Assembly (NCBI GenBank): GCA_049296775.1
Contig: JBAQTB010000003.1
Location: 76,766 to 140,765, forward strand
DNA length: 64,000 bases
Direction of reading: 5' to 3'
Origin: Patescibacteria group bacterium
GTDB lineage: Bacteria > Patescibacteriota > Patescibacteriia > UBA9934
In this document: piece after piece, positions 10,272-18,100 of the stretch
How the letters are laid out: every line of letters begins with the position of its first letter
Numbering within the stretch: the first letter of the stretch is position 1
Program-made: the position numbers and the translations under genes
The notes under the pieces: generated by a model
The model's input: only the letters and a program-made list of their open reading frames with translations
Database searches by the model: none
What the model was told of the DNA's origin: nothing

Positions 10272-10733
10272 ATGCAAAGTAAGGCCGTGAGGGTCAAAGA
10301 CTATCTAGCGGAATTGCCAGCTGAGCGCCGGCAGGCTATTGAGGCGGTCCGGAAGGTGATTTTGAAAAGTTTACCTAAAGGTTACAAAGAAGCCATGGTG
10401 TACGGCATGATGGGTTATGTGGTACCGCTTAAAACTTACCCTAAAGGTTATTTGGATAATCCCAAGATGCCGTTGACGTATGTCGCTTTAGCCTCGCAGA
10501 AGAACTACATGGCCCTTTACCTGATTAACGTGTATACCGGCGCGAGTGTCGCGAAGTGGTTTACGGAGGCATACAAAGCAAGCGGCAAGAAGCTGGATAT
10601 GGGCAAGTCTTGCATCAGATTTAAGCATTTAGAGGATCTACCCCTAGACGTCGTCGCCAAAGCTGTTGCTCTGACTCCTGTCCCTGAGTTTATCGAGCTG
10701 TACGAACAAGGCCGTGTTTCACGGAAGAAGTGA
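10272..10733 (+). CDS. DUF1801 (YdhG-like) domain protein, paralog
   Basis: VKDYLAELPAERRQAIEAVRKVI is the typical DUF1801 N-terminus. It lies divergent from the paralog above. Confidence 0.5.
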   Translation: MQSKAVRVKDYLAELPAERRQAIEAVRKVILKSLPKGYKEAMVYGMMGYVVPLKTYPKGYLDNPKMPLTYVALASQKNYMALYLINVYTGASVAKWFTEAYKASGKKLDMGKSCIRFKHLEDLPLDVVAKAVALTPVPEFIELYEQGRVSRKK

Positions 10734-11088
10734 TATGAAAAATCAACCTTTATAAGCGGGAGTCAGGTTTTGGCTCTGGCGCACAACGCATCCATGCTGT
10801 CCTACCTCCAACCCACGGCTGCTGTGACATTTTTAATTTTCGTACGCGATGCTCACTCCCATCACGCCTAGGTAGCAAAGAACTCGTTTCGAGCTGATTT
10901 CACGATTTATTTTTTTTACTTCATCCGGCTATTACAGGTGGGGGGCTTTTATGCGGTTATAATGATATTGTGCGCATTATGAAAAATTATCTGTACTTAT
11001 CAGTAGCTTTAGTAATAATATATGGTGATCTCTAAACGTTGTATTTAGGAAATGCTATTGGTTGGAGTAGCGGTAAGTAATTAAAAAT

Positions 11089-11802
11089 ATGAGAAAAAAA
11101 TTATTTCCTTCCGTGGCGGTATTAATGTCATCATTAATTATCGGAGGGGCTATTATTGTTGCTCAATCCATTAAGTCTGGGTCGTTTGACGCTTTGGATG
11201 GTTCTCGTGTTAGCTCCCAAGATTCTTCTCAACACGTTGAGGAGACCGGAATTACCGAAGAGATTCGTGAAGACGACTCTTTGCCTTCTTCGAGCTTTCA
11301 GCCGTTGGTAGTCACGGATTTGGATATGTATTATTCAAAAGCTTCGGAAAACTTAGCTGATTGTTGTGATATACCTAGCGAAACTCTAACATTTTTTCTC
11401 ACGAAAAGGAACATCGCTCAGCAGTCATTTACTGAAAATACTGAATGGCTAAAAACCGCTAAAACTGCAGATGCAACCGTTTGTGTTTTAGAGTGGAATA
11501 AACTACTTACCGATACTCAAAAACTTATTAACGAAGCTCAAAATTTAGTCGATGTGGTGAGCATTAATAATGCAGGCGCTGAAGAAATTAAGAGTCAAGC
11601 GCGTAGTTATATAAATTCCATTCAAAATAAAACGTATCCTAACAAGGCTTTGTTAGAGAATTTTATAAACACCTCTATCGTCAGGTTAGATAGCTTCACT
11701 GTTGATGTTAATACTGCCGCTGACCAATTTAATACTGCTTTAACTACGAGAGATTCATCGGGGGAAAACTTAAAAACATGTCTTTCATCCTACTTGCAAT
11801 AG
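11089..11802 (+). CDS. Secreted/membrane-anchored hypothetical protein
   Basis: An N-terminal hydrophobic segment. AT-rich. Confidence 0.4.
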   Translation: MRKKLFPSVAVLMSSLIIGGAIIVAQSIKSGSFDALDGSRVSSQDSSQHVEETGITEEIREDDSLPSSSFQPLVVTDLDMYYSKASENLADCCDIPSETLTFFLTKRNIAQQSFTENTEWLKTAKTADATVCVLEWNKLLTDTQKLINEAQNLVDVVSINNAGAEEIKSQARSYINSIQNKTYPNKALLENFINTSIVRLDSFTVDVNTAADQFNTALTTRDSSGENLKTCLSSYLQ

Positions 11803-11955
11803 GCGCCGGACGTTTTTAACATCACGGTATAATCGAAGAATCTAGGCAGTTTGATGTGTGGATATGCCTAGATGACGTGAAATGCACGTTGGTAGTGCGG
11901 GAGAGAGGGGGGGTGATTTTTTGCCATAGTTAAAAATCCACATTGTTCATCTAAT

Positions 11956-12612
11956 ATGAAAAAACTGCTGTTGTTATGTTTTATCAGTCTGGCAGTATTG
12001 GGGAACGGTTGTTCTAACGTAACTTCATTACCCATCAATCAACAAATCGATGAATACGAGGATGTTGATATTGAAGCGTTGGAGTCGAGAGTCTCTGAGC
12101 TTGAAGGAATCGCAGGGTCTATTGAGTCCGTAAATAGTTTTATTTCACTAGATTCTCAGGCTGAAAGTTATCATCAATCTCCTATTAAATTCGTTGGGAA
12201 TGTTTCGCCTGATACATCTAGGATTGTGGTAACCGCACTATACGGAGGCAAGACGGACGTTTATACACTAAAAGATTATGCGCCTGGCAGTGCCTCGTTT
12301 GAATATCAAGCAGCAGAAAAATGGAATAATTTAGCGACTGGACAAAATACCTATTATTTTCAGGCGTATTTCAATGATGGAAGTAGTAATATATTTGAAA
12401 GAACGATTAGCTATTATCCACCTGTAGTTGAAGCGATGCCGATTCCCATTTCACCTCCCGTCAGTAAAACTGTTCAACCACCTGCTTATGTCGCGCCCTC
12501 AACGACACGTAGTTGCTGTAAGACTTGTGTGACGGGTAAAGCGTGTGGAGATTCATGTATATCTAAGAGTTATACATGCCATAAAGGCCCTGGTTGTGCC
12601 TGTAACCAATAG
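11956..12612 (+). CDS. Lipoprotein with C-terminal Cys-rich tail
   Basis: Lipobox LGNGC. The tail SCCKTCVTGKACGDSCISKSYTCHKGPGCACNQ has 10 Cys in 33 aa. Confidence 0.5.
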   Translation: MKKLLLLCFISLAVLGNGCSNVTSLPINQQIDEYEDVDIEALESRVSELEGIAGSIESVNSFISLDSQAESYHQSPIKFVGNVSPDTSRIVVTALYGGKTDVYTLKDYAPGSASFEYQAAEKWNNLATGQNTYYFQAYFNDGSSNIFERTISYYPPVVEAMPIPISPPVSKTVQPPAYVAPSTTRSCCKTCVTGKACGDSCISKSYTCHKGPGCACNQ

Positions 12613-12731
12613 CCAGTTATTAACTAAATTACATATAATTAGCTCCGTTACTGTTTCTTGCGGGTGCATTGCACAGGATGTCCACTTATTGCTGTTGCTT
12701 AGACTCGCGGAATTTGTTATTATATCTCCGT

Positions 12732-13079
12732 ATGGCAAAAAGTGATGTCGTGAAATTAACTGAGCGGTTGAGCGAACTTCAAGAGCTTCTCGCTAAGAAA
12801 ACTGAGATTGAGGATCGGTTGATGTATTTGACTGGCATTAAGCGTGAGGAGAAGAAGGCTGAATTAAAGCCTGACGGATTTTCTGTTATGGCAGCGATCC
12901 GTGAGGCGCTCACTGAAGCCAATCGCCCGCTCAAGGTTAATAGTCTTTGTTTGGCTATTAAAGCTCGCCATAATTTCGAGCCTGAGCCGGCGAGTGTTAG
13001 AACTACCGCTAAATATATGGTTAATAAAGGAGTATTAATTATGAATGATGTTACTAAAGAATTCAGTTTAATTACTTGA
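12732..13079 (+). CDS. Hypothetical protein
   Basis: ATG at 12732 (MAKSDVVKLTERLSELQELLAKK...). Confidence 0.3.
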   Translation: MAKSDVVKLTERLSELQELLAKKTEIEDRLMYLTGIKREEKKAELKPDGFSVMAAIREALTEANRPLKVNSLCLAIKARHNFEPEPASVRTTAKYMVNKGVLIMNDVTKEFSLIT

Positions 13080-13222
13080 AAGACACCCGTCCTTTGCAGT
13101 GGCGGTGCTATCAGGCTTATCGGATCTCCCGTTGAAAGTAGATCTATAAAGACTGGTAACACTCCCATTGGAAGGGATTGGTGGTAGGCCAATCGTCCCA
13201 AAATTGAATGGGTAATAAATAG

Positions 13223-13320
13223 GGAGGGATGACCGAGTTGGTCGATGGTACCGGCCTTATAAGCCGACAAACATTGCCTGAAAGCGTGTTTCGAGGGTTC
13301 GAATCCCTCTCCCTCCGCCA
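13223..13320 (+). tRNA. Type-II (long variable arm) Ser-like tRNA with apparent anticodon UAU
   Basis: The cloverleaf was folded by hand. Acceptor GGAGGGA/TCCCTCC, G73 and CCA are encoded. T-arm GAGGG-TTCGAAT-CCCTC. D-arm ACC...GGT. Anticodon stem CCGGC/GCCGA with loop CTTATAA (U33, A37). A 25-nt variable arm. Confidence 0.6.
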
Positions 13321-13462
13321 GATATTACTCATTCAATTTTGGAACGATCAGTGATTGTATTTTATAACATCCTTTTATTTCAACGTCAACTACATAAGTT
13401 TTATAAATTTATTTTAACATATTTATCGTCGAAGGTAATGTTTATCAACAACCGTATTTATT

Positions 13463-13960
13463 ATGGATAAATCTGAGGTTGAATTTTATTTAATATTAGC
13501 AGCTTTAGTAGTAGTTTTGAGTATTGCCTTGGCTGCATTATACTTCAATGCCTCAAAAGAAAATATTAGTGTGATCGTGGGGGAATATGACAATGGCAAA
13601 ATCTCCTTTTTAAAAATAGAAACTGCTAAACAGATTGTCGCTAAAAATATTGATAAGCCTCAATCACGCATTCATTATTGTCAGATCATCTTTGATAACG
13701 GGCTTATAATTTTAGGGTTATATCAAGAGGGAAATACGATTAAAGCTAGTCTTAAGGCAATCATAGCGAAAGCATTTGATAAGGACACTGAAATTAAGTT
13801 GTTTGTGGATGATCAACACGGAGTGCAACGATCCGGTAAAGATTATTTTATAGATGACATGGCATCTATTGGTATCTCTGATGATGGGGAGACCTCACGT
13901 ATTATCTTTGGCCCTACACCAATTCGCAAATTGTTAGACGATGCTCTAAAAGTTGGTTAA
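13463..13960 (+). CDS. Single-pass membrane protein (first gene of the AT-rich islet)
   Basis: An N-terminal TM helix (LILAALVVVLSIALAALYF). About 33% GC. Confidence 0.4.
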   Translation: MDKSEVEFYLILAALVVVLSIALAALYFNASKENISVIVGEYDNGKISFLKIETAKQIVAKNIDKPQSRIHYCQIIFDNGLIILGLYQEGNTIKASLKAIIAKAFDKDTEIKLFVDDQHGVQRSGKDYFIDDMASIGISDDGETSRIIFGPTPIRKLLDDALKVG

Positions 13961-13983
13961 GTGGTTATTGGTTCTAAACAAAA

Positions 13984-14007
13984 AACTAGCCTGGGCTGGT
14001 TTTTTTG
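13984..14007 (+). terminator. Rho-independent terminator
   Basis: ctagcctgggctgg hairpin followed by ttttttt. Confidence 0.4.
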
Positions 14008-14040
14008 CGAGGTTAATTAATTTCATAATTTCCAATAAGC

Positions 14041-14412
14041 ATGGTAGGCTTTGGGTATATGGAAGATAGTCGTTTAGATCTCATTATTCAGCAAATTATT
14101 GCTTTTAGAGATGCTAGGGATTGGAAGCAATTTCATAATCCTAAGGACTGTTCGTTGTCTTTGATCTTGGAGGCCGCAGAAGTGGCCGAGCATTTTCAAT
14201 GGAAAAATCAAGAAGAAATGCAAGCACATTTAGATGGGCACCGTGAAGAGGTGGCGGATGAATTGGCAGACGCCATGTATTGGATTTTGTTAATGAGTCA
14301 TGATGCTGGCATTGATATTCTTGAGGCCGTTGAACGTAAACTTGGGAAAAATAACTTAAAATACCCGGTAGATAAATCAAAGGGTCGCCATACTAAATAT
14401 ACCGAGCTCTAA
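14041..14412 (+). CDS. MazG-like nucleotide pyrophosphohydrolase
   Basis: EAAEVAEHFQWK ... EVADELADAMYWILLMSHDAGIDI are the MazG EExxE/D motifs. Confidence 0.65.
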   Translation: MVGFGYMEDSRLDLIIQQIIAFRDARDWKQFHNPKDCSLSLILEAAEVAEHFQWKNQEEMQAHLDGHREEVADELADAMYWILLMSHDAGIDILEAVERKLGKNNLKYPVDKSKGRHTKYTEL

Positions 14413-14415
14413 TGT

Positions 14416-15984
14416 ATGTCTGAAATTACTACATATCCATTTAATGCCGAGCAGGTGGTGCAAGTTTGTGAATACCATTTTGGCATGAATTGGCCGGTAG
14501 TTTATATTTTAGAGAATAAAAAGGAGGTATACATTGGTGAAACTGTTAGTGCTTATTCTAGAAGTAGACAGCATTTAGAGAATTCTGATCGAAGGCGATT
14601 GAACAGGATGCATATTGTTACGGATGAAGAATTTAACAAATCTGCCGCTTTGGACATTGAATCATTATTGATTCAGTACATGTCTGCCGAGGGGTCGCTG
14701 GTTTTACAAAATGGCAATAAGGGATTGGTTGATCATAACTATTATGATCGTGAAAAGTACCAAGCCAAGTTTGAAACTATTTGGGACAAGCTGAAGGCGA
14801 TGTCATTGGTGTCTAAAGATTTAAAGGACATTAGAAATAGCGATTTATTTAAGTTTTCACCGTTTAAGGCCTTAACGGTAGATCAGATTTTAGTAGCTGA
14901 TCAAATATTGGAGATCTTGAGAACTAAAACTGAAGCTACAATCGTCATTTCTGGTAAACCAGGTACTGGCAAAACTATCTTGGCGATTTACTTAATGAAA
15001 AGATTGAAGGAAGAGGAGGAATTCAAGCAGCTCAAGACGGCTTTGGTGGTTCCGATGGCTTCATTGCGAGAGACTTTGAAAGGCGTATTTTCCTTTGTTA
15101 AAAATCTTAGTGGTGGGATGGTGAAAGGGCCGAGCCACGTTACAGATTCTAGTTATGATTTGTTGATTGTAGATGAGGCGCACCGATTGCATCGTAGAAG
15201 GAATATTGTTAATTACGCCTCTCATGATAAAACTAATCAGAAATTAGGTTTAGCTAATGACGGGACTGAGTTAGATTGGATTATGAAATCCGCACGGTAT
15301 AAAATTTTGTTTTACGATGAAAAGCAACATGTCAGACCATCTGACGTAACCCCGGCGGATTTTAAAAAGTTAGCAGCAACACATTTAGACCTACAGACTC
15401 AAAAGAGAGTGGAGGGTGGCGATGAGTACATTCAATTCATCGATAGCTTATTTAATGAGTCAAAAGGTTTACCAGCATTTAAAGATTATGACTTTAAAAT
15501 TTTTGATAGTTTAGAATTAATGGTGAAGCAAATTGATGAAAGAGAGAAAGAGGTGAAGTTATCTCGTTTGGTTGCTGGTTATGCCTGGGAGTGGATCTCA
15601 AAAAAGAATAAGGCTTTGTATGACATTGAAATCGATGGAGTTAAGTTAAAATGGAATAGCGTGAACACTGACTGGGTAAACTCTCCAAATTCAGCAAATG
15701 AGGTTGGCTGTATTCATACTATTCAAGGATACGATTTAAATTACACTGGAGTTATTATTGGGCCAGAAATGACTTATGATCCAATTAGCGAACAGCTAAA
15801 GGTCGTTAAAGGTAATTATAAGGATAGGAATGGTCATGCTGGTGTTGATGATTCTGCTGAGTTAGAGAGATACATTTTTAATATCTACCGCACTTTGTTG
15901 ACTAGAGGCATGAAGGGAACATATGTGTATGCTGTTGATCCGGAGTTGAGGGCTTATTTGAAACGGTGTTTGCTGGGAGAATAA
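14416..15984 (+). CDS. GIY-YIG nuclease domain fused to a DUF2075/Schlafen-like P-loop ATPase (SF1-helicase-related)
   Basis: VYILENKKEVYIGETVSAYSRSRQH (GIY-YIG). Walker A ISGKPGTGKT and Walker B LLIVDEAHRL. FKFSPFKALTVDQILVADQILE is typical of DUF2075. About 37% GC. Confidence 0.6.
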   Translation: MSEITTYPFNAEQVVQVCEYHFGMNWPVVYILENKKEVYIGETVSAYSRSRQHLENSDRRRLNRMHIVTDEEFNKSAALDIESLLIQYMSAEGSLVLQNGNKGLVDHNYYDREKYQAKFETIWDKLKAMSLVSKDLKDIRNSDLFKFSPFKALTVDQILVADQILEILRTKTEATIVISGKPGTGKTILAIYLMKRLKEEEEFKQLKTALVVPMASLRETLKGVFSFVKNLSGGMVKGPSHVTDSSYDLLIVDEAHRLHRRRNIVNYASHDKTNQKLGLANDGTELDWIMKSARYKILFYDEKQHVRPSDVTPADFKKLAATHLDLQTQKRVEGGDEYIQFIDSLFNESKGLPAFKDYDFKIFDSLELMVKQIDEREKEVKLSRLVAGYAWEWISKKNKALYDIEIDGVKLKWNSVNTDWVNSPNSANEVGCIHTIQGYDLNYTGVIIGPEMTYDPISEQLKVVKGNYKDRNGHAGVDDSAELERYIFNIYRTLLTRGMKGTYVYAVDPELRAYLKRCLLGE

Positions 15985-16004
15985 TCCGGTCGTTATTCGA
16001 AACT

Positions 16005-17501
16005 ATGCACATCACGAAAACGGATTATCTTGAATATACTTACTGTAAGAAGAATCTTTGGCTTAAGAAGTTTAAGCGGGAGTTGTTTGAGGGCGTTGAG
16101 TTGTCCGAATTTGAGAAGAAGATTATTGAGGAGGGCAATGCGGCGGATGAGGCGGCCAGGCATTTGTTTCCGGAGGGGCAGTTGGTAGAGACGGTGGGGG
16201 TGGGGGCGGCCTTGGCCACCAAGACGTTTTTAGAGGCGGGTGTCAAGACAATTTTTCAGGGAGCATTTAAGCATGGGGAGTTCTTTGTCCAGGCCGACAT
16301 TTTGAGATTTGATGCTGTTACTGGTGGATGGGAATTGTATGAGGTCAAGGCGACCAATGCGGTGAAACGGATTGTGCCGCATCATCATGTGAATGATTTG
16401 GCGTTTCAGAAATCTGTGATTGAGGCGTGTGGTTTGGAGATTAAGAAGACGGGGGTGATTCATTTGAATGGGGAGTATCGTCCGCAGGGGCGGCTGAACT
16501 ACGGAGAGTTGTTTGTGGTGGCGGATTTGACGGATGAGGTGTTGGAGGCTCAGGCGGGAGTTAAGCTGCAGATGCAGGATTTAAAGACGTATTTGAGTTT
16601 GCCGGAGGAGCGGGGGTGTGAGTGTTTGTACCGGGGGCGGAATGCCCAGTGCACTACTTTTGCGTATTCCAATCCGGAGGTGCCGGAGTATTCTGTGCAT
16701 GACATTAGTCGGATTGGGGGGAGTAAGAAGTTGTTTTTTGATTGGATTGACCGGGGGATTTATGCGCTTAATGACATTGATAATCCTGAGAAATTGACTG
16801 GGTCCAAGCGGTCACAGTATGACGCGTACATGCTGGGCCGGCCGCTCATTGATCAGACGGGGATTAAGCAGGCCTTGGACGGTTTACAGTTCCCGCTGTA
16901 CTTCTTTGATTATGAAGGTTACTCCTCGGCCATTCCGCGGTTTGATGGTTTTGGCACGTATGAGCAGGTACCGTTTCAGTATTCACTCCACATTCTGCAT
17001 GCAGATGGGGAGATGGAGCACAAAGAGTTTTTGATTACAGATTTATCTCAAGATTTAACTTTGCCGTTAGTGGAGCAGATGAGGCGGGATTTTGGGGAGA
17101 CTGGTTCTGTGATTTCTTGGTATAAGTCTTACGAATCACAGCGCAACACTAAGTTGGCAGAATTGCATCCTAGCCACGCCGAGTTTTTGGAGGCCTTGAA
17201 TGACCGCATGTTTGACTTGATGACGATTTTTTCAACTGATCTGTATGTGGATGCGGCCTTTAAGGGGAGTGCGAGTATCAAAAAGGTTTTGCCAGTGCTA
17301 GTCCCAGAGTTGAGCTACAAGGTGTTGAAGGTGCAGAAAGGAGATCAAGCCATTGAGCGTTGGGAAAAGATGATCGCTGCTGACACATCCCCATCAGACA
17401 AAGCCCAAATCGCCCAAGACCTGCTGGAGTACTGCAAGCTAGATACCCTCGCCATGGTCAAGATTTATGAGGCTTTGAGGGGTATATACTCAGGGATATG
17501 A
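16005..17501 (+). CDS. Cas4/RecB-like PD-(D/E)xK nuclease fused to a DEDD-type 3'-5' exonuclease-like (DUF2779-like) domain
   Basis: ADILRFD...ELYEVK (D/ExK core). Cys residues YCKK and CECLYRGRNAQC. C-terminal FFDYEGYS (Exo I DxE) and EYCKLDTLAMVKIY (Exo III YxxxD). An alternative GTG start at 15966 would overlap the upstream gene by 19 nt. Confidence 0.5.
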   Translation: MHITKTDYLEYTYCKKNLWLKKFKRELFEGVELSEFEKKIIEEGNAADEAARHLFPEGQLVETVGVGAALATKTFLEAGVKTIFQGAFKHGEFFVQADILRFDAVTGGWELYEVKATNAVKRIVPHHHVNDLAFQKSVIEACGLEIKKTGVIHLNGEYRPQGRLNYGELFVVADLTDEVLEAQAGVKLQMQDLKTYLSLPEERGCECLYRGRNAQCTTFAYSNPEVPEYSVHDISRIGGSKKLFFDWIDRGIYALNDIDNPEKLTGSKRSQYDAYMLGRPLIDQTGIKQALDGLQFPLYFFDYEGYSSAIPRFDGFGTYEQVPFQYSLHILHADGEMEHKEFLITDLSQDLTLPLVEQMRRDFGETGSVISWYKSYESQRNTKLAELHPSHAEFLEALNDRMFDLMTIFSTDLYVDAAFKGSASIKKVLPVLVPELSYKVLKVQKGDQAIERWEKMIAADTSPSDKAQIAQDLLEYCKLDTLAMVKIYEALRGIYSGI

Positions 17502-18100
17502 TTCAACAATATACTTGCCCGATGCATCCGGAGGTGGTGTCTGATCAGCCAGGGACATGCCCTAAGTGTGGGATGGCGTTGGTGGAGATGAGCGTGGTTA
17601 AGGTCGCTCAACCGGCTCAGCCGGGGGGCGCCTGGAGTAGGTACCAACCGTTAGCGGTGGTGGTTTTGATGATTACGGCGGTGACGGCGGTTAGTTCGGC
17701 GGCTGATTTTGAGCTACAGTCCGCCTTGATGACCTTCATGATCGGATTCTTTTTGGTCTTTGGTAGCTTTAAGCTCATGGATCTGAAGGGCTTTGTGGAG
17801 GGTTATGCTACTTATGATTTATTGGCTGCAAAATTTAAAGGGTATGGTTACGTCTACCCGTTTATTGAGATCGCCTTTGGTTTGTTGATGCTCGGAGGTT
17901 ACCATCCGGATTGGCTGTTGGGCGTGGAGTTTGGGGTGATGGCTTTTAGTGGCTTGGGAGTCTCGATAAAATTAGCCAAGGGGGAGAAATTCACTTGCGC
18001 TTGTCTAGGGACCTTTTTGAAGGTACCTTTGACCTACGTCACTCTGGTAGAAGATTTTGGCATGGCGATTATGGCTTTATTGCTGATTTTGGCGTTTTAA
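17498..18100 (+). CDS. Heavy-metal-binding domain (CPxHPEV...CPKCGM) fused to a MauE/DoxX-like membrane domain
   Basis: N-terminal YTCPMHPEVVSDQPGTCPKCGMAL, then 4 TM helices with FTCACLG. The ATG overlaps the preceding stop (ATGA). Confidence 0.5.
   Translation: MIQQYTCPMHPEVVSDQPGTCPKCGMALVEMSVVKVAQPAQPGGAWSRYQPLAVVVLMITAVTAVSSAADFELQSALMTFMIGFFLVFGSFKLMDLKGFVEGYATYDLLAAKFKGYGYVYPFIEIAFGLLMLGGYHPDWLLGVEFGVMAFSGLGVSIKLAKGEKFTCACLGTFLKVPLTYVTLVEDFGMAIMALLLILAF

Follow-up and report, generated by a model that had tools for sequence, protein, structure and literature searches.

A mobile two-gene cassette pairing a MazG-like pyrophosphatase with a GIY-YIG/DUF2075 nuclease-helicase in a Patescibacteria group bacterium: a candidate defense system of the Nhi kind

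Several described anti-phage proteins combine a nuclease with a DUF2075 helicase. Nhi (SERP2475) of Staphylococcus epidermidis, for which an anti-phage function has been demonstrated, and AbiO both carry an N-terminal nuclease fused to a DUF2075 SF1B helicase. Nhi is encoded by a single gene, and its nuclease is of the PD-(D/E)xK type. Nhi-like (Millman et al. 2022), compared here by description only, likewise joins a nuclease, classed as PD-(D/E)xK, to a DUF2075/SF1 helicase, and with Nhi it represents the nuclease plus DUF2075 anti-phage proteins. Phages escape Nhi-like through loss of a phage DNA methylase, which suggests that Nhi-like senses modified DNA. The same PF09848 helicase is found in the group 3 Schlafen proteins SLFN5, SLFN11, SLFN13, and SLFN14, and SLFN11 is activated when single-stranded DNA binds this domain. 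Bacterial Schlafen (pSlfn) proteins also act in defense; the 2026 study of pSlfn concerns the RNase domain only.

Here, we analyzed a 64,000-nucleotide stretch (the window) of a Patescibacteria (CPR) group bacterium in which a 4.1-kb segment carries four genes in the same orientation. The left edge of this islet is a type II tRNA gene with a Ser-like body and the anticodon UAU (13223..13320, plus strand, as are all features below), called by ARAGORN, scoring 54 bits against the Rfam tRNA model and aligned with CPR tRNA-Ser genes; it is given as context, and a tRNA beside the cassette described below is not a general feature across related loci. In 500-nt windows, the GC content is 0.33-0.39 between 13250 and 15999, compared with about 0.49 in the rest of the window. 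By segment, it is 0.329 for the first gene and the spacers, 0.383 for the next two genes, and 0.486 for the fourth, with the step to the latter at about 15990-16075. An AT-rich stretch after the tRNA, with these four genes, had been reported in the preliminary description and was recovered by the GC windows and the tRNA and domain searches. The limits given for it, 35-38% GC over 13323..15990, hold for the low GC but not for the left boundary, since positions 10750-13222 also have a GC of 0.405 and the low-GC zone therefore reaches further left. Similarly, the tight packing claimed for three genes is true of the second and third, but not of the first, which lies 80 nt away. The islet looks horizontally acquired.

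The second gene (14041..14412) encodes a predicted MazG-like all-alpha dNTP pyrophosphatase of 123 residues and of the DCTPP1/RS21-C6 type; its start may be at the second ATG, 14059. The protein matches PF12643 at 61 bits (cut-off 27), in agreement with its first identification as MazG-like, and also PHROG 3301 'pyrophosphatase'. Over its full length it matches PDB sequences 4qgp (2.5e-18) and human DCTPP1 (6sqw, 2.3e-17). The EXXE...EXXD metal-binding residues (E44, E47, E50, E74, and D77) are present; across 80 sequences, these five and the tryptophans W28 and W54 each reach a conservation of 97% or more. Full-length similarity, the metal-binding Glu/Asp, and the stacking Trp are thus shared with DCTPP1/RS21-C6 (XTP3TPA) and with phage MazG-like pyrophosphatases; unlike the known DCTPP1/RS21-C6, the enzyme found here is the operon partner of a nuclease-helicase. 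The nucleotide-depletion defenses based on dCTP deaminase or dGTPase also place a dNTP-acting enzyme in a defense-like context, but these belong to a different enzyme family, the cassette enzyme is paired with a nuclease-helicase, and depletion of canonical dNTPs would here be hypothetical. Only 3 nt separate the stop from the next ATG (TAA-TGT-ATG), as had been reported.

The third gene (14416..15984) encodes a 522-residue GIY-YIG nuclease fused to an SF1B helicase of the DUF2075/Schlafen group 3 family. The helicase core, residues 174-508 (14935..15939), matches PF09848 at 231.9 bits (cut-off 24) and contains the Walker A motif GKPGTGKT (14953-14976) and a DEAH motif (15172-15183). Among 25 homologues, G180, P182, G183-T187, D253, E254, H256, R257, Q329, R331, H434, T435, Q437, G438, T496, R497, and G498 are invariant. 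The profile score, the intact Walker A, Walker B, and SF1 motifs, and the SF1B fold place the protein among the group 3 Schlafen/DUF2075 helicases. The best fold matches of its AF2 model (pLDDT 87.8) are RecD, SLFN11, SLFN14, UPF1, RecD2, Dna2, and Dda. The nuclease domain, at about residues 27-100 (14494..14715), has a marginal score of 23.5 bits against PF01541 (cut-off 22.6), but its motif Y30, Y39-I-G41 and residues R49, H53, E82, and N99 show no variation among 25 homologues, which assigns it to the GIY-YIG superfamily. The protein has this domain and not the AlbA_2-type ribonuclease of the Schlafens: a Pfam scan returned no Schlafen or AlbA_2 domain, and the protein does not have the Ex4ExK RNase that defines pSlfn. 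The target of the nuclease and the substrate of the pyrophosphatase are predicted by homology only. Profile searches and motifs thus agree with all the domain calls of the preliminary description, including the GIY-YIG N-terminus, Walker A/DEAH P-loop, and DUF2075/Schlafen-like features of this protein.

These two genes form one unit, and they are the only two of the four that travel together. We compiled 80 loci related to the window cassette. In 79 of them the helicase gene is immediately preceded by the MazG-like gene on the same strand, the 80th being cut by a contig end. The intergenic gap is 0-5 nt where the starts are clear, most commonly 3, 2, or 1 nt, and the cassette alignments show conserved catalytic residues for each of the three activities. 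The same pair, at 35% identity, is found on the Bacillus thuringiensis plasmid pIS56-233, where a 'nucleotide pyrophosphohydrolase' precedes the DUF2075 protein. The cassette is very widespread: the nuclease-helicase has more than 7,700 homologous clusters and remains 55-60% identical between phyla, many alignment columns being invariant. The pairwise distances of the two proteins are weakly correlated (r = 0.14, a value reached by 15 of 999 permutations), which we count against the reading preferred below.

The other two genes had been included in the proposed module, in which a membrane effector, the MazG, the GIY-YIG/DUF2075 ATPase, and a Cas4-like/DEDD exonuclease would act together as one defense system. 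Lack of co-occurrence in other genomes was named there as one refuting outcome and, because the membrane protein is absent from all 80 loci and the exonuclease gene is present in 2/80, this model is already largely refuted. The membrane protein (13463..13960), 165 residues long with one N-terminal hydrophobic helix, is an orphan unrelated to the cassette; it matched no family in Pfam, NCBIfam, or PHROG, and only three other representatives were found among 1.84 billion (E ≤ 1e-3). It is set off from the MazG-like gene by the 80-nt spacer, which contains an A-tract/stem/U-tract hairpin with a predicted 11-bp stem (13980..14005). This hairpin is a possible weak terminator, although its energy does not differ significantly from that of shuffled sequences (z -0.72) and a terminator scan did not call it.

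The fourth gene (16005..17501) encodes a 498-residue DUF2779 protein, in which a Cas4/MGME1-like PD-(D/E)xK nuclease with four Cys is followed by a DEDDy RNase H-like exonuclease. This architecture had been recognized correctly: the protein scores 127.4 bits against PF11074 (cut-off 23.3), and the D...ExK motif (D98, E113, and K115), Cys 14, 205, 207, and 216, and the DEDDy residues D302, E304, D404, Y476, and D480 are invariant. Its fold matches MGME1, Cas4, and RecE. Resemblance to Cas4 extends to a weak PADLOC match (E 0.002, 16.6 bits) and to the folds of 4r5q and 4ic1, and no cas genes were seen among the neighbors in the window or at the DUF2779 loci. The closest known proteins are MMSYN1_0389 of JCVI-syn3.0 and solo Cas4. 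MMSYN1_0389 has the same two-nuclease architecture of a Cas4-like plus a DEDDy domain, but the CPR proteins keep all four Cys, versus two in the Mycoplasma protein; the nuclease roles of both are putative. The overlap of the helicase gene with a GTG start at 15966 was rejected. The ATG at 16005 fits the NCBI annotation (498 residues) and the lengths of homologues (494-495), so that the two genes are 20 nt apart instead of overlapping. Beyond the common strand and this short gap, the four-gene model can draw on two loci: in one, diverged from the window, DUF2779 follows the helicase gene after 18 nt, the two being 50% (helicase) and 73% (DUF2779) identical to the window copies, and in the other the gene immediately upstream of the cassette encodes a PIF1-DUF2779 fusion. 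However, CPR DUF2779 genes commonly lie directly downstream of many unrelated restriction-type genes, recurrently forming the 3′ end of restriction operons, and the closeness seen here does seem meaningful for this reason rather than as part of a four-gene module. DUF2779 is a separate resident gene outside the conserved cassette, with host-like GC where the cassette has not. With the counts given above, we find joint action of the four genes hardly credible.

The two-gene operon is horizontally mobile, because its GC is lower than that of its flanks, the flanking genes differ from locus to locus, and relatives lack it at the syntenic site. Indeed, flanks richer in GC than the cassette were found at 56 of the 67 loci, with an average difference of 7.0 points, and nowhere is the cassette more than 3 points higher; the entire block between positions 10.3 and 18.1 kb of the window is missing at the syntenic site of the nearest sampled relatives. 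It is cellular rather than viral, being found in 2 of 2.9 million viral contigs, plus four weak phage records. The commonest immediate neighbors are NYN, Panacea antitoxin, Mrr_cat, Fic/RhuM, a second DUF2075 protein (PDC-S41), DNA methyltransferases, and NERD. The cassette thus has toxin-antitoxin and restriction genes in varying sets around it, a defense character that is descriptive only because it has no background control. More distant single-gene homologues on plasmids of Bacillales and Lactobacillales are beside McrBC, a UvrD-like helicase, HNH plus Dam, an MrcB_N-HNH enzyme, and a nucleotidyltransferase plus E2/UBC pair, which we take to be CBASS-like. As a precedent from other work, DUF2075 genes adjoin modification-dependent restriction enzymes. 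The patchy distribution, low GC, and variable location of the cassette, with toxin-antitoxin genes as its commonest neighbors, would also suit a module that is toxic or selfish, such as one for mobile-element maintenance or addiction, in which the nuclease-helicase is countered by the pyrophosphatase and neither serves defense or repair. We consider this very improbable: att-like repeats and an integrase were searched for at the window locus and not found, no transposase or replication gene adjoins the cassette in the window, the two genes are inserted alone in many different contexts, and a dNTP pyrophosphatase has no obvious means to neutralize a nuclease-helicase.

About 60% of homologues of the nuclease-helicase (47/78) carry in addition a C-terminal S24 domain, an intact LexA-type autoprotease that aligns to residues 76-191 of LexA (E 2e-15) and keeps the cleavage site and the Ser-Lys dyad. 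The window protein is a short form, ending at residue 522 without this LexA/UmuD-type domain. We know of no S24 variants of Nhi. The activation of SLFN11 by single-stranded DNA has a parallel in this domain, if it responds to RecA-ssDNA as expected. The long forms also lend an argument to a different reading, that the pair is an SOS-linked module for DNA repair and nucleotide-pool sanitation. The pyrophosphatase would then clear dNTPs that are damaged or modified, the GIY-YIG helicase would incise and unwind damaged DNA like UvrC plus UvrD, and S24 would link long forms to the damage response that depends on RecA. DCTPP1, to which the homology was drawn from the PDB sequence match, is a housekeeping pool sanitizer in mammals; viruses almost never carry the cassette; and DinB, Pyr_excise, NUDIX, and MsrA/B genes are near it in a few loci. 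These repair and stress genes, together with an identity across phyla that is unusually high for a defense gene, count against defense and speak for repair. Yet the GC of the cassette is systematically below that of its flanks, which vary and show no conserved synteny with repair genes, the nearest relatives do not have it at the syntenic locus, its commonest neighbors are of the toxin-antitoxin and restriction type, its distant homologues are in plasmid defense islands, and the window copy has no S24. A repair role is accordingly the less likely one, but we give it some weight.

Rather, the pair is probably an unnamed nuclease-helicase system of the Nhi kind, directed against phages or mobile elements. 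A defense-type role, as first proposed, is thus plausible, while the four-gene composition is not. The window protein shares with Nhi a DUF2075 SF1B helicase fused to a nuclease, but its N-terminus is GIY-YIG instead of PD-(D/E)xK, and it has the MazG-like partner that neither the single-gene Nhi nor, as described, Nhi-like has. PADLOC gave partial matches only: the AbiO and Nhi models (about 1e-13) cover residues 152-378 in the helicase part, the Nhi model being confined to residues 153-350, and the candidate PDC-S14 the N-terminal 140 residues. The absence of a full-length match, and of a name for the pair in the searched literature, counts against the defense reading; it also bears out the initial statement that no named system could be matched to the gene set. 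Sensing of modified DNA by Nhi-like would fit with the DCTPP1-type partner and the MrcB_N-HNH neighbor of the homologues. In a system of the Nhi kind, the helicase would load on foreign DNA, either as it invades or as it replicates, and translocate 5′ to 3′, and the GIY-YIG domain would cut the DNA so engaged. In long forms, the S24 domain may couple this activity to RecA-ssDNA filaments, a link that the window copy would do without. The pyrophosphatase would hydrolyze non-canonical, probably 5-modified, dCTP or other dNTPs. Phages whose DNA is built from modified nucleotides could be starved in this way. Alternatively, modified nucleotides that the cell salvages when phage DNA is degraded could be kept out of the host DNA, which they would otherwise make a target.

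The window belongs to a metagenome-assembled genome of the CPR (Patescibacteria). Its GC content is 0.33-0.39 downstream of the tRNA (13223-13320, plus strand), which lies to the left of this low-GC stretch, and remains so to about 16.0 kb, versus 0.49 in the rest of the window; the low-GC zone also reaches upstream, to about 10.75 kb (GC 0.405 there). Four plus-strand genes follow the tRNA. The first (13463-13960) encodes 165 aa with a single hydrophobic helix at the N-terminus and matches no family; the second (14041-14412) encodes a MazG-like protein of 123 aa (PF12643). The third (14416-15984) codes for a 522-aa protein that combines a GIY-YIG domain with a helicase domain of DUF2075/Schlafen group 3 (PF09848, 232 bits), and the fourth (16005-17501) for a DUF2779 protein. 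The helicase gene starts 3 nt after the MazG-like stop. The preliminary description of this sequence thus holds for the AT-rich stretch and its four genes, and requires correction on two points. The first gene is not tightly packed against the second, 80 nt with a hairpin lying between them, and the DUF2779 gene does not overlap the helicase gene: its start is ATG 16005, after a 20-nt gap, because the NCBI annotation gives 498 aa and the homologues measure 494-495 aa. A terminator 3′ of the membrane-protein gene was considered and set aside, as the hairpin exists but has no statistical support.

Scanning one-genome-per-species data with an alignment of the helicase homologues confirmed at least 547 loci. 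The best 80 of these are nearly all labelled CPR, with a few short contigs binned, possibly wrongly, to other phyla. All but one of these best 80 (79; the remaining locus is cut by a contig end) have a MazG-like ORF immediately upstream in the same orientation, most commonly at a distance of 3, 2 or 1 nt, while DUF2779 is present in 2/80 and the membrane protein in none. Clustering all the flanking ORFs of the cassette loci revealed no third conserved gene. Moreover, the same pair occurs, as H175_RS30570 and H175_RS30565, on the Bacillus thuringiensis plasmid pIS56-233 at 35% identity, annotated in order as "nucleotide pyrophosphohydrolase" and "DUF2075 domain-containing protein", with both domains confirmed by Pfam. 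The co-occurrence counts and the plasmid pair establish that the conserved unit is two genes, and not the four-gene module that had been proposed. The membrane protein, which had been put forward as its effector, was likewise dropped: besides being absent from the best 80 loci it is an orphan, a search of 1.84 billion cluster representatives giving just three further relatives, and its sole PADLOC match (PDC-M62A, E 5e-4, 16.8 bits) was treated as noise. Co-evolution of the two cassette proteins was also explored and not retained; the distance correlation is weak (r = 0.14), and the star-like shape of the sampled set, at about 57-59% identity, makes it uninformative.

Judged from sequence, the catalytic motifs predicted for a dNTP pyrophosphatase, a GIY-YIG nuclease and an SF1B helicase are all intact. 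Human and mouse DCTPP1/RS21-C6 (E about 2e-17) and an archaeal pyrophosphatase structure align with the MazG-like protein along its entire length. In 80 sequences, its metal-binding Glu/Asp residues and two of its tryptophans are conserved to at least 97%. In the family of the 522-aa protein, the GIY-YIG residues Y30, Y39, G41, R49, H53, E82 and N99 and all the SF1 helicase motifs are invariant. Sequence searches of solved structures returned nothing useful for the helicase protein or for DUF2779 and were replaced by fold searches. The best fold matches of the AlphaFold model of the 522-aa protein (pLDDT 87.8) are the SF1B helicases RecD, SLFN11, SLFN14, UPF1, RecD2, Dna2 and Dda. The helicase family comprises more than 7,700 protein clusters (E<=1e-10) and is unusually conserved, at 55-60% identity.

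About 60% of the helicase homologues (47/78) are some 150 residues longer, for example the homologues P0002, P0008 and P0013 and those of the comparison loci L002, L003 and L005. The additional residues form a Peptidase_S24 domain aligning to residues 76-191 of E. coli LexA (E 2e-15). The Ala-Gly cleavage site of LexA is Cys-Gly in these long forms and both residues of the catalytic dyad, Ser and Lys, are kept, from which an intact LexA-type autoprotease is predicted. Long and short forms cluster apart, the nearest neighbor having the same form in 66/78 cases, and the window copy is a short form lacking the S24 domain. An SOS-linked repair and nucleotide-pool sanitation module would fit the LexA-like domain of the long forms, the housekeeping function of DCTPP1 and the strong conservation of the sequence. 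This is the main rival to a defence role and we consider it rather unlikely, as the GC offset of the cassette from its flanks, its variable location and its neighbors speak against it.

Indeed, the GC content of the cassette is below that of its flanks in 56 of 67 loci, with a mean offset of 7.0 points, and is never more than 3 points above it. The two-gene operon, concentrated in CPR bacteria, is both conserved and mobile. In the window, a block at about 10300-18100, holding two predicted secreted proteins, a 118-aa ORF, the tRNA, the orphan gene, the cassette, DUF2779 and a MauE-like gene, is missing from the syntenic interval of the nearest sampled relatives (loci L171 and L172), in which the flavoprotein that flanks the block is 82-85% identical. 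The relatives' interval, from a DUF1801-type gene to the flavoprotein gene, is shorter than 1 kb and contains neither the tRNA, the cassette, DUF2779 nor the MauE-like gene. The named relatives of the flavoprotein are mostly Uhrbacteria. Exact matches to the flavoprotein, the helicase protein and the DUF2779 protein all lie on one 383,515-bp NCBI contig. A search for integration signatures found neither an integrase nor a direct repeat of the 3′ end of the tRNA. A tRNA lies within 2 kb upstream in about 7 of 60 loci, close to the chance expectation, and the adjacency to a tRNA, given some weight in the preliminary description, is not a general feature of the cassette. A phage origin was rejected, as matches to the cassette in viral collections were confined to 2 viral contigs and 4 weak phage records.

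The tRNA itself belongs to type II: its variable arm is long (about 22-25 nt), its discriminator base is G and its CCA is encoded. Although it can be aligned to tRNA-Ser genes of CPR bacteria, its anticodon is UAU, which reads the Ile codon AUA. This codon is rare in the long ORFs of the window (3.2 per 1000 codons). The helicase and DUF2779 genes contain it three times, twice at alignment columns of Ile/Leu/Val and once where no homologue residue is aligned. Charging of the UAU tRNA by SerRS would lead to mistranslation. Neither the other loci in the set of 172 retrieved nor the viral contigs contained a copy of this tRNA. A 26-nt inverted repeat, 92% complementary, exactly flanks the gene (13192-13217 and 13323-13348), so that leader and trailer can pair in a long stem enclosing the cloverleaf; the fold of 13185-13355 has an energy of -69.8 kcal/mol (z = -5.7). 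At another CPR locus (L005:4766-4853, plus strand), a tRNA-Ser was called with the unusual anticodon ACU.

The immediate neighbors of the cassette are heterogeneous among the best 80 of the at least 547 loci. In a descriptive tally, the top families were NYN, Panacea-type antitoxin, Mrr_cat, Fic/RhuM, DNA methyltransferases and NERD, along with a second DUF2075 protein matching the PADLOC candidate PDC-S41. Repair or stress genes (Pyr_excise, NUDIX, DinB, MsrA/B) form a minority. The evidence from the neighbors is descriptive. We also observed a recurrent gene pair just downstream of the cassette (L008, L011, L013, L033, L058, L067, L070 and others), made of an HTH and SocA/Panacea antitoxin-domain protein of about 230-240 aa (12 loci) and a 131-aa protein without annotation (7 loci), which is probably a toxin-antitoxin module. 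Distant single-gene GIY-YIG/DUF2075 homologues sit on Bacillales and Lactobacillales plasmids, next to McrC and an AAA ATPase, a UvrD-like helicase, HNH and a DNA adenine methylase, or a nucleotidyltransferase and an E2/UBC protein. On a Paenibacillus amylolyticus plasmid (L082:4522-5799, plus strand), the gene directly upstream, in place of the MazG-like gene, encodes an MrcB_N (McrB N-terminal-like) and HNH protein, which ties the family to modification-dependent restriction.

On balance, we favor a defence role for the cassette. Nhi and Nhi-like proteins, anti-phage proteins that join a nuclease to DUF2075, would be closest in their working; the cassette differs in its nuclease type and in not being a single gene. 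Phages are reported to escape Nhi-like by losing a DNA methylase, and DUF2075 genes have been recorded beside modification-dependent restriction enzymes. With Schlafen proteins the cassette shares only the helicase domain, and it lacks the RNase domain that is the subject of a 2026 paper on bacterial Schlafens. PADLOC gave only partial matches, with no model describing the pair, and the literature searched held no description of it, in agreement with the earlier remark that the gene set matches no named system. In a defence role, the helicase-nuclease would degrade foreign DNA the way Nhi does. The DCTPP1-type enzyme would act on non-canonical dNTPs, and could either deprive phages of modified precursors or keep modified nucleotides, once salvaged, from making host DNA a target. 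RecA-ssDNA may trigger self-cleavage of the long forms and so switch their activity. Mammalian DCTPP1 prefers 5-modified dCTP.

The DUF2779 protein had been read as a Cas4-like/DEDD exonuclease; invariant residues and fold matches bear this out, supporting a Cas4/MGME1-like PD-(D/E)xK domain with four Cys followed by a DEDDy exonuclease, and published computational analyses give the same reading. The protein does not regularly accompany the cassette. Its context was drawn from a metagenome scan and two look-ups. Between lineages, CPR DUF2779 genes share 65-79% identity; two copies (L088 and L093) occur on one 785-kb contig. The genes often lie 1-30 nt downstream of a same-strand gene (metagenome loci L083-L164). 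The top families among 68 upstream genes, some from near-duplicate loci, are ResIII (10), SWI2_SNF2, HSDR_N, GmrSD, RhuM/Fic and DNA methylases. Ten tightly linked upstream genes checked singly include Type III Res-like (4), Type I HsdR and Eco57I/MmeI-type genes, the rest being GmrSD, AAA_13, ATPase_2/DUF234 and HARE-HTH proteins; a Shedu-like gene is also among the restriction-type genes directly upstream. Downstream genes are ordinary (DciA, YqeY, Obg). The helicase-then-DUF2779 order recurs, with diverged copies, in L108, and in L020 (535-3519, plus strand) a 995-aa protein that joins a PIF1-like SF1B helicase to a DUF2779 nuclease is encoded directly upstream of the cassette. In the window, the ATG of a gene for a 200-aa protein with a heavy-metal-binding domain (HMBD) and a MauE-type membrane domain (17498-18100, plus strand) overlaps the DUF2779 stop by 4 nt, joining DUF2779 more tightly to this gene than to the cassette. 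DUF2779 here looks like a resident gene with host-like GC, before which the cassette appears to hold the position that restriction genes hold elsewhere. Its recurrence at restriction genes may reflect cooperation with those systems or mere marking of a hotspot, and gives a starting point for tests on a large family of unknown function that includes a quasi-essential protein of JCVI-syn3.0.

A wider reading, which we regard as distinctly doubtful, joins these observations: the pair would be a very widespread, unnamed, modification-aware restriction immunity, and DUF2779 a general-purpose "finisher" exonuclease, positioned by CPR bacteria at the 3′ end of restriction operons of various kinds. 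The nuclease-helicase would destroy foreign, probably base-modified or replicating, DNA, with the DCTPP1-type enzyme as a self-protection arm keeping modified dNTPs from host DNA. The LexA-type domain of the long forms would gate activity on RecA-ssDNA, making them a bacterial counterpart of the ssDNA-activated SLFN11.

If the cassette does serve defence, it would add a GIY-YIG nuclease, a near-constant dNTP pyrophosphatase partner and a LexA-type autoprotease switch, none of them described for Nhi-type systems, and one bacterial operon would link a DCTPP1 homologue with a Schlafen helicase-domain homologue. The B. thuringiensis plasmid pair offers a culturable entry point. The cassette is uncharacterized yet very common (over 7,700 matching protein clusters, and no fewer than 547 loci in one-genome-per-species data), and it bears on CPR bacteria, whose defences are poorly known.
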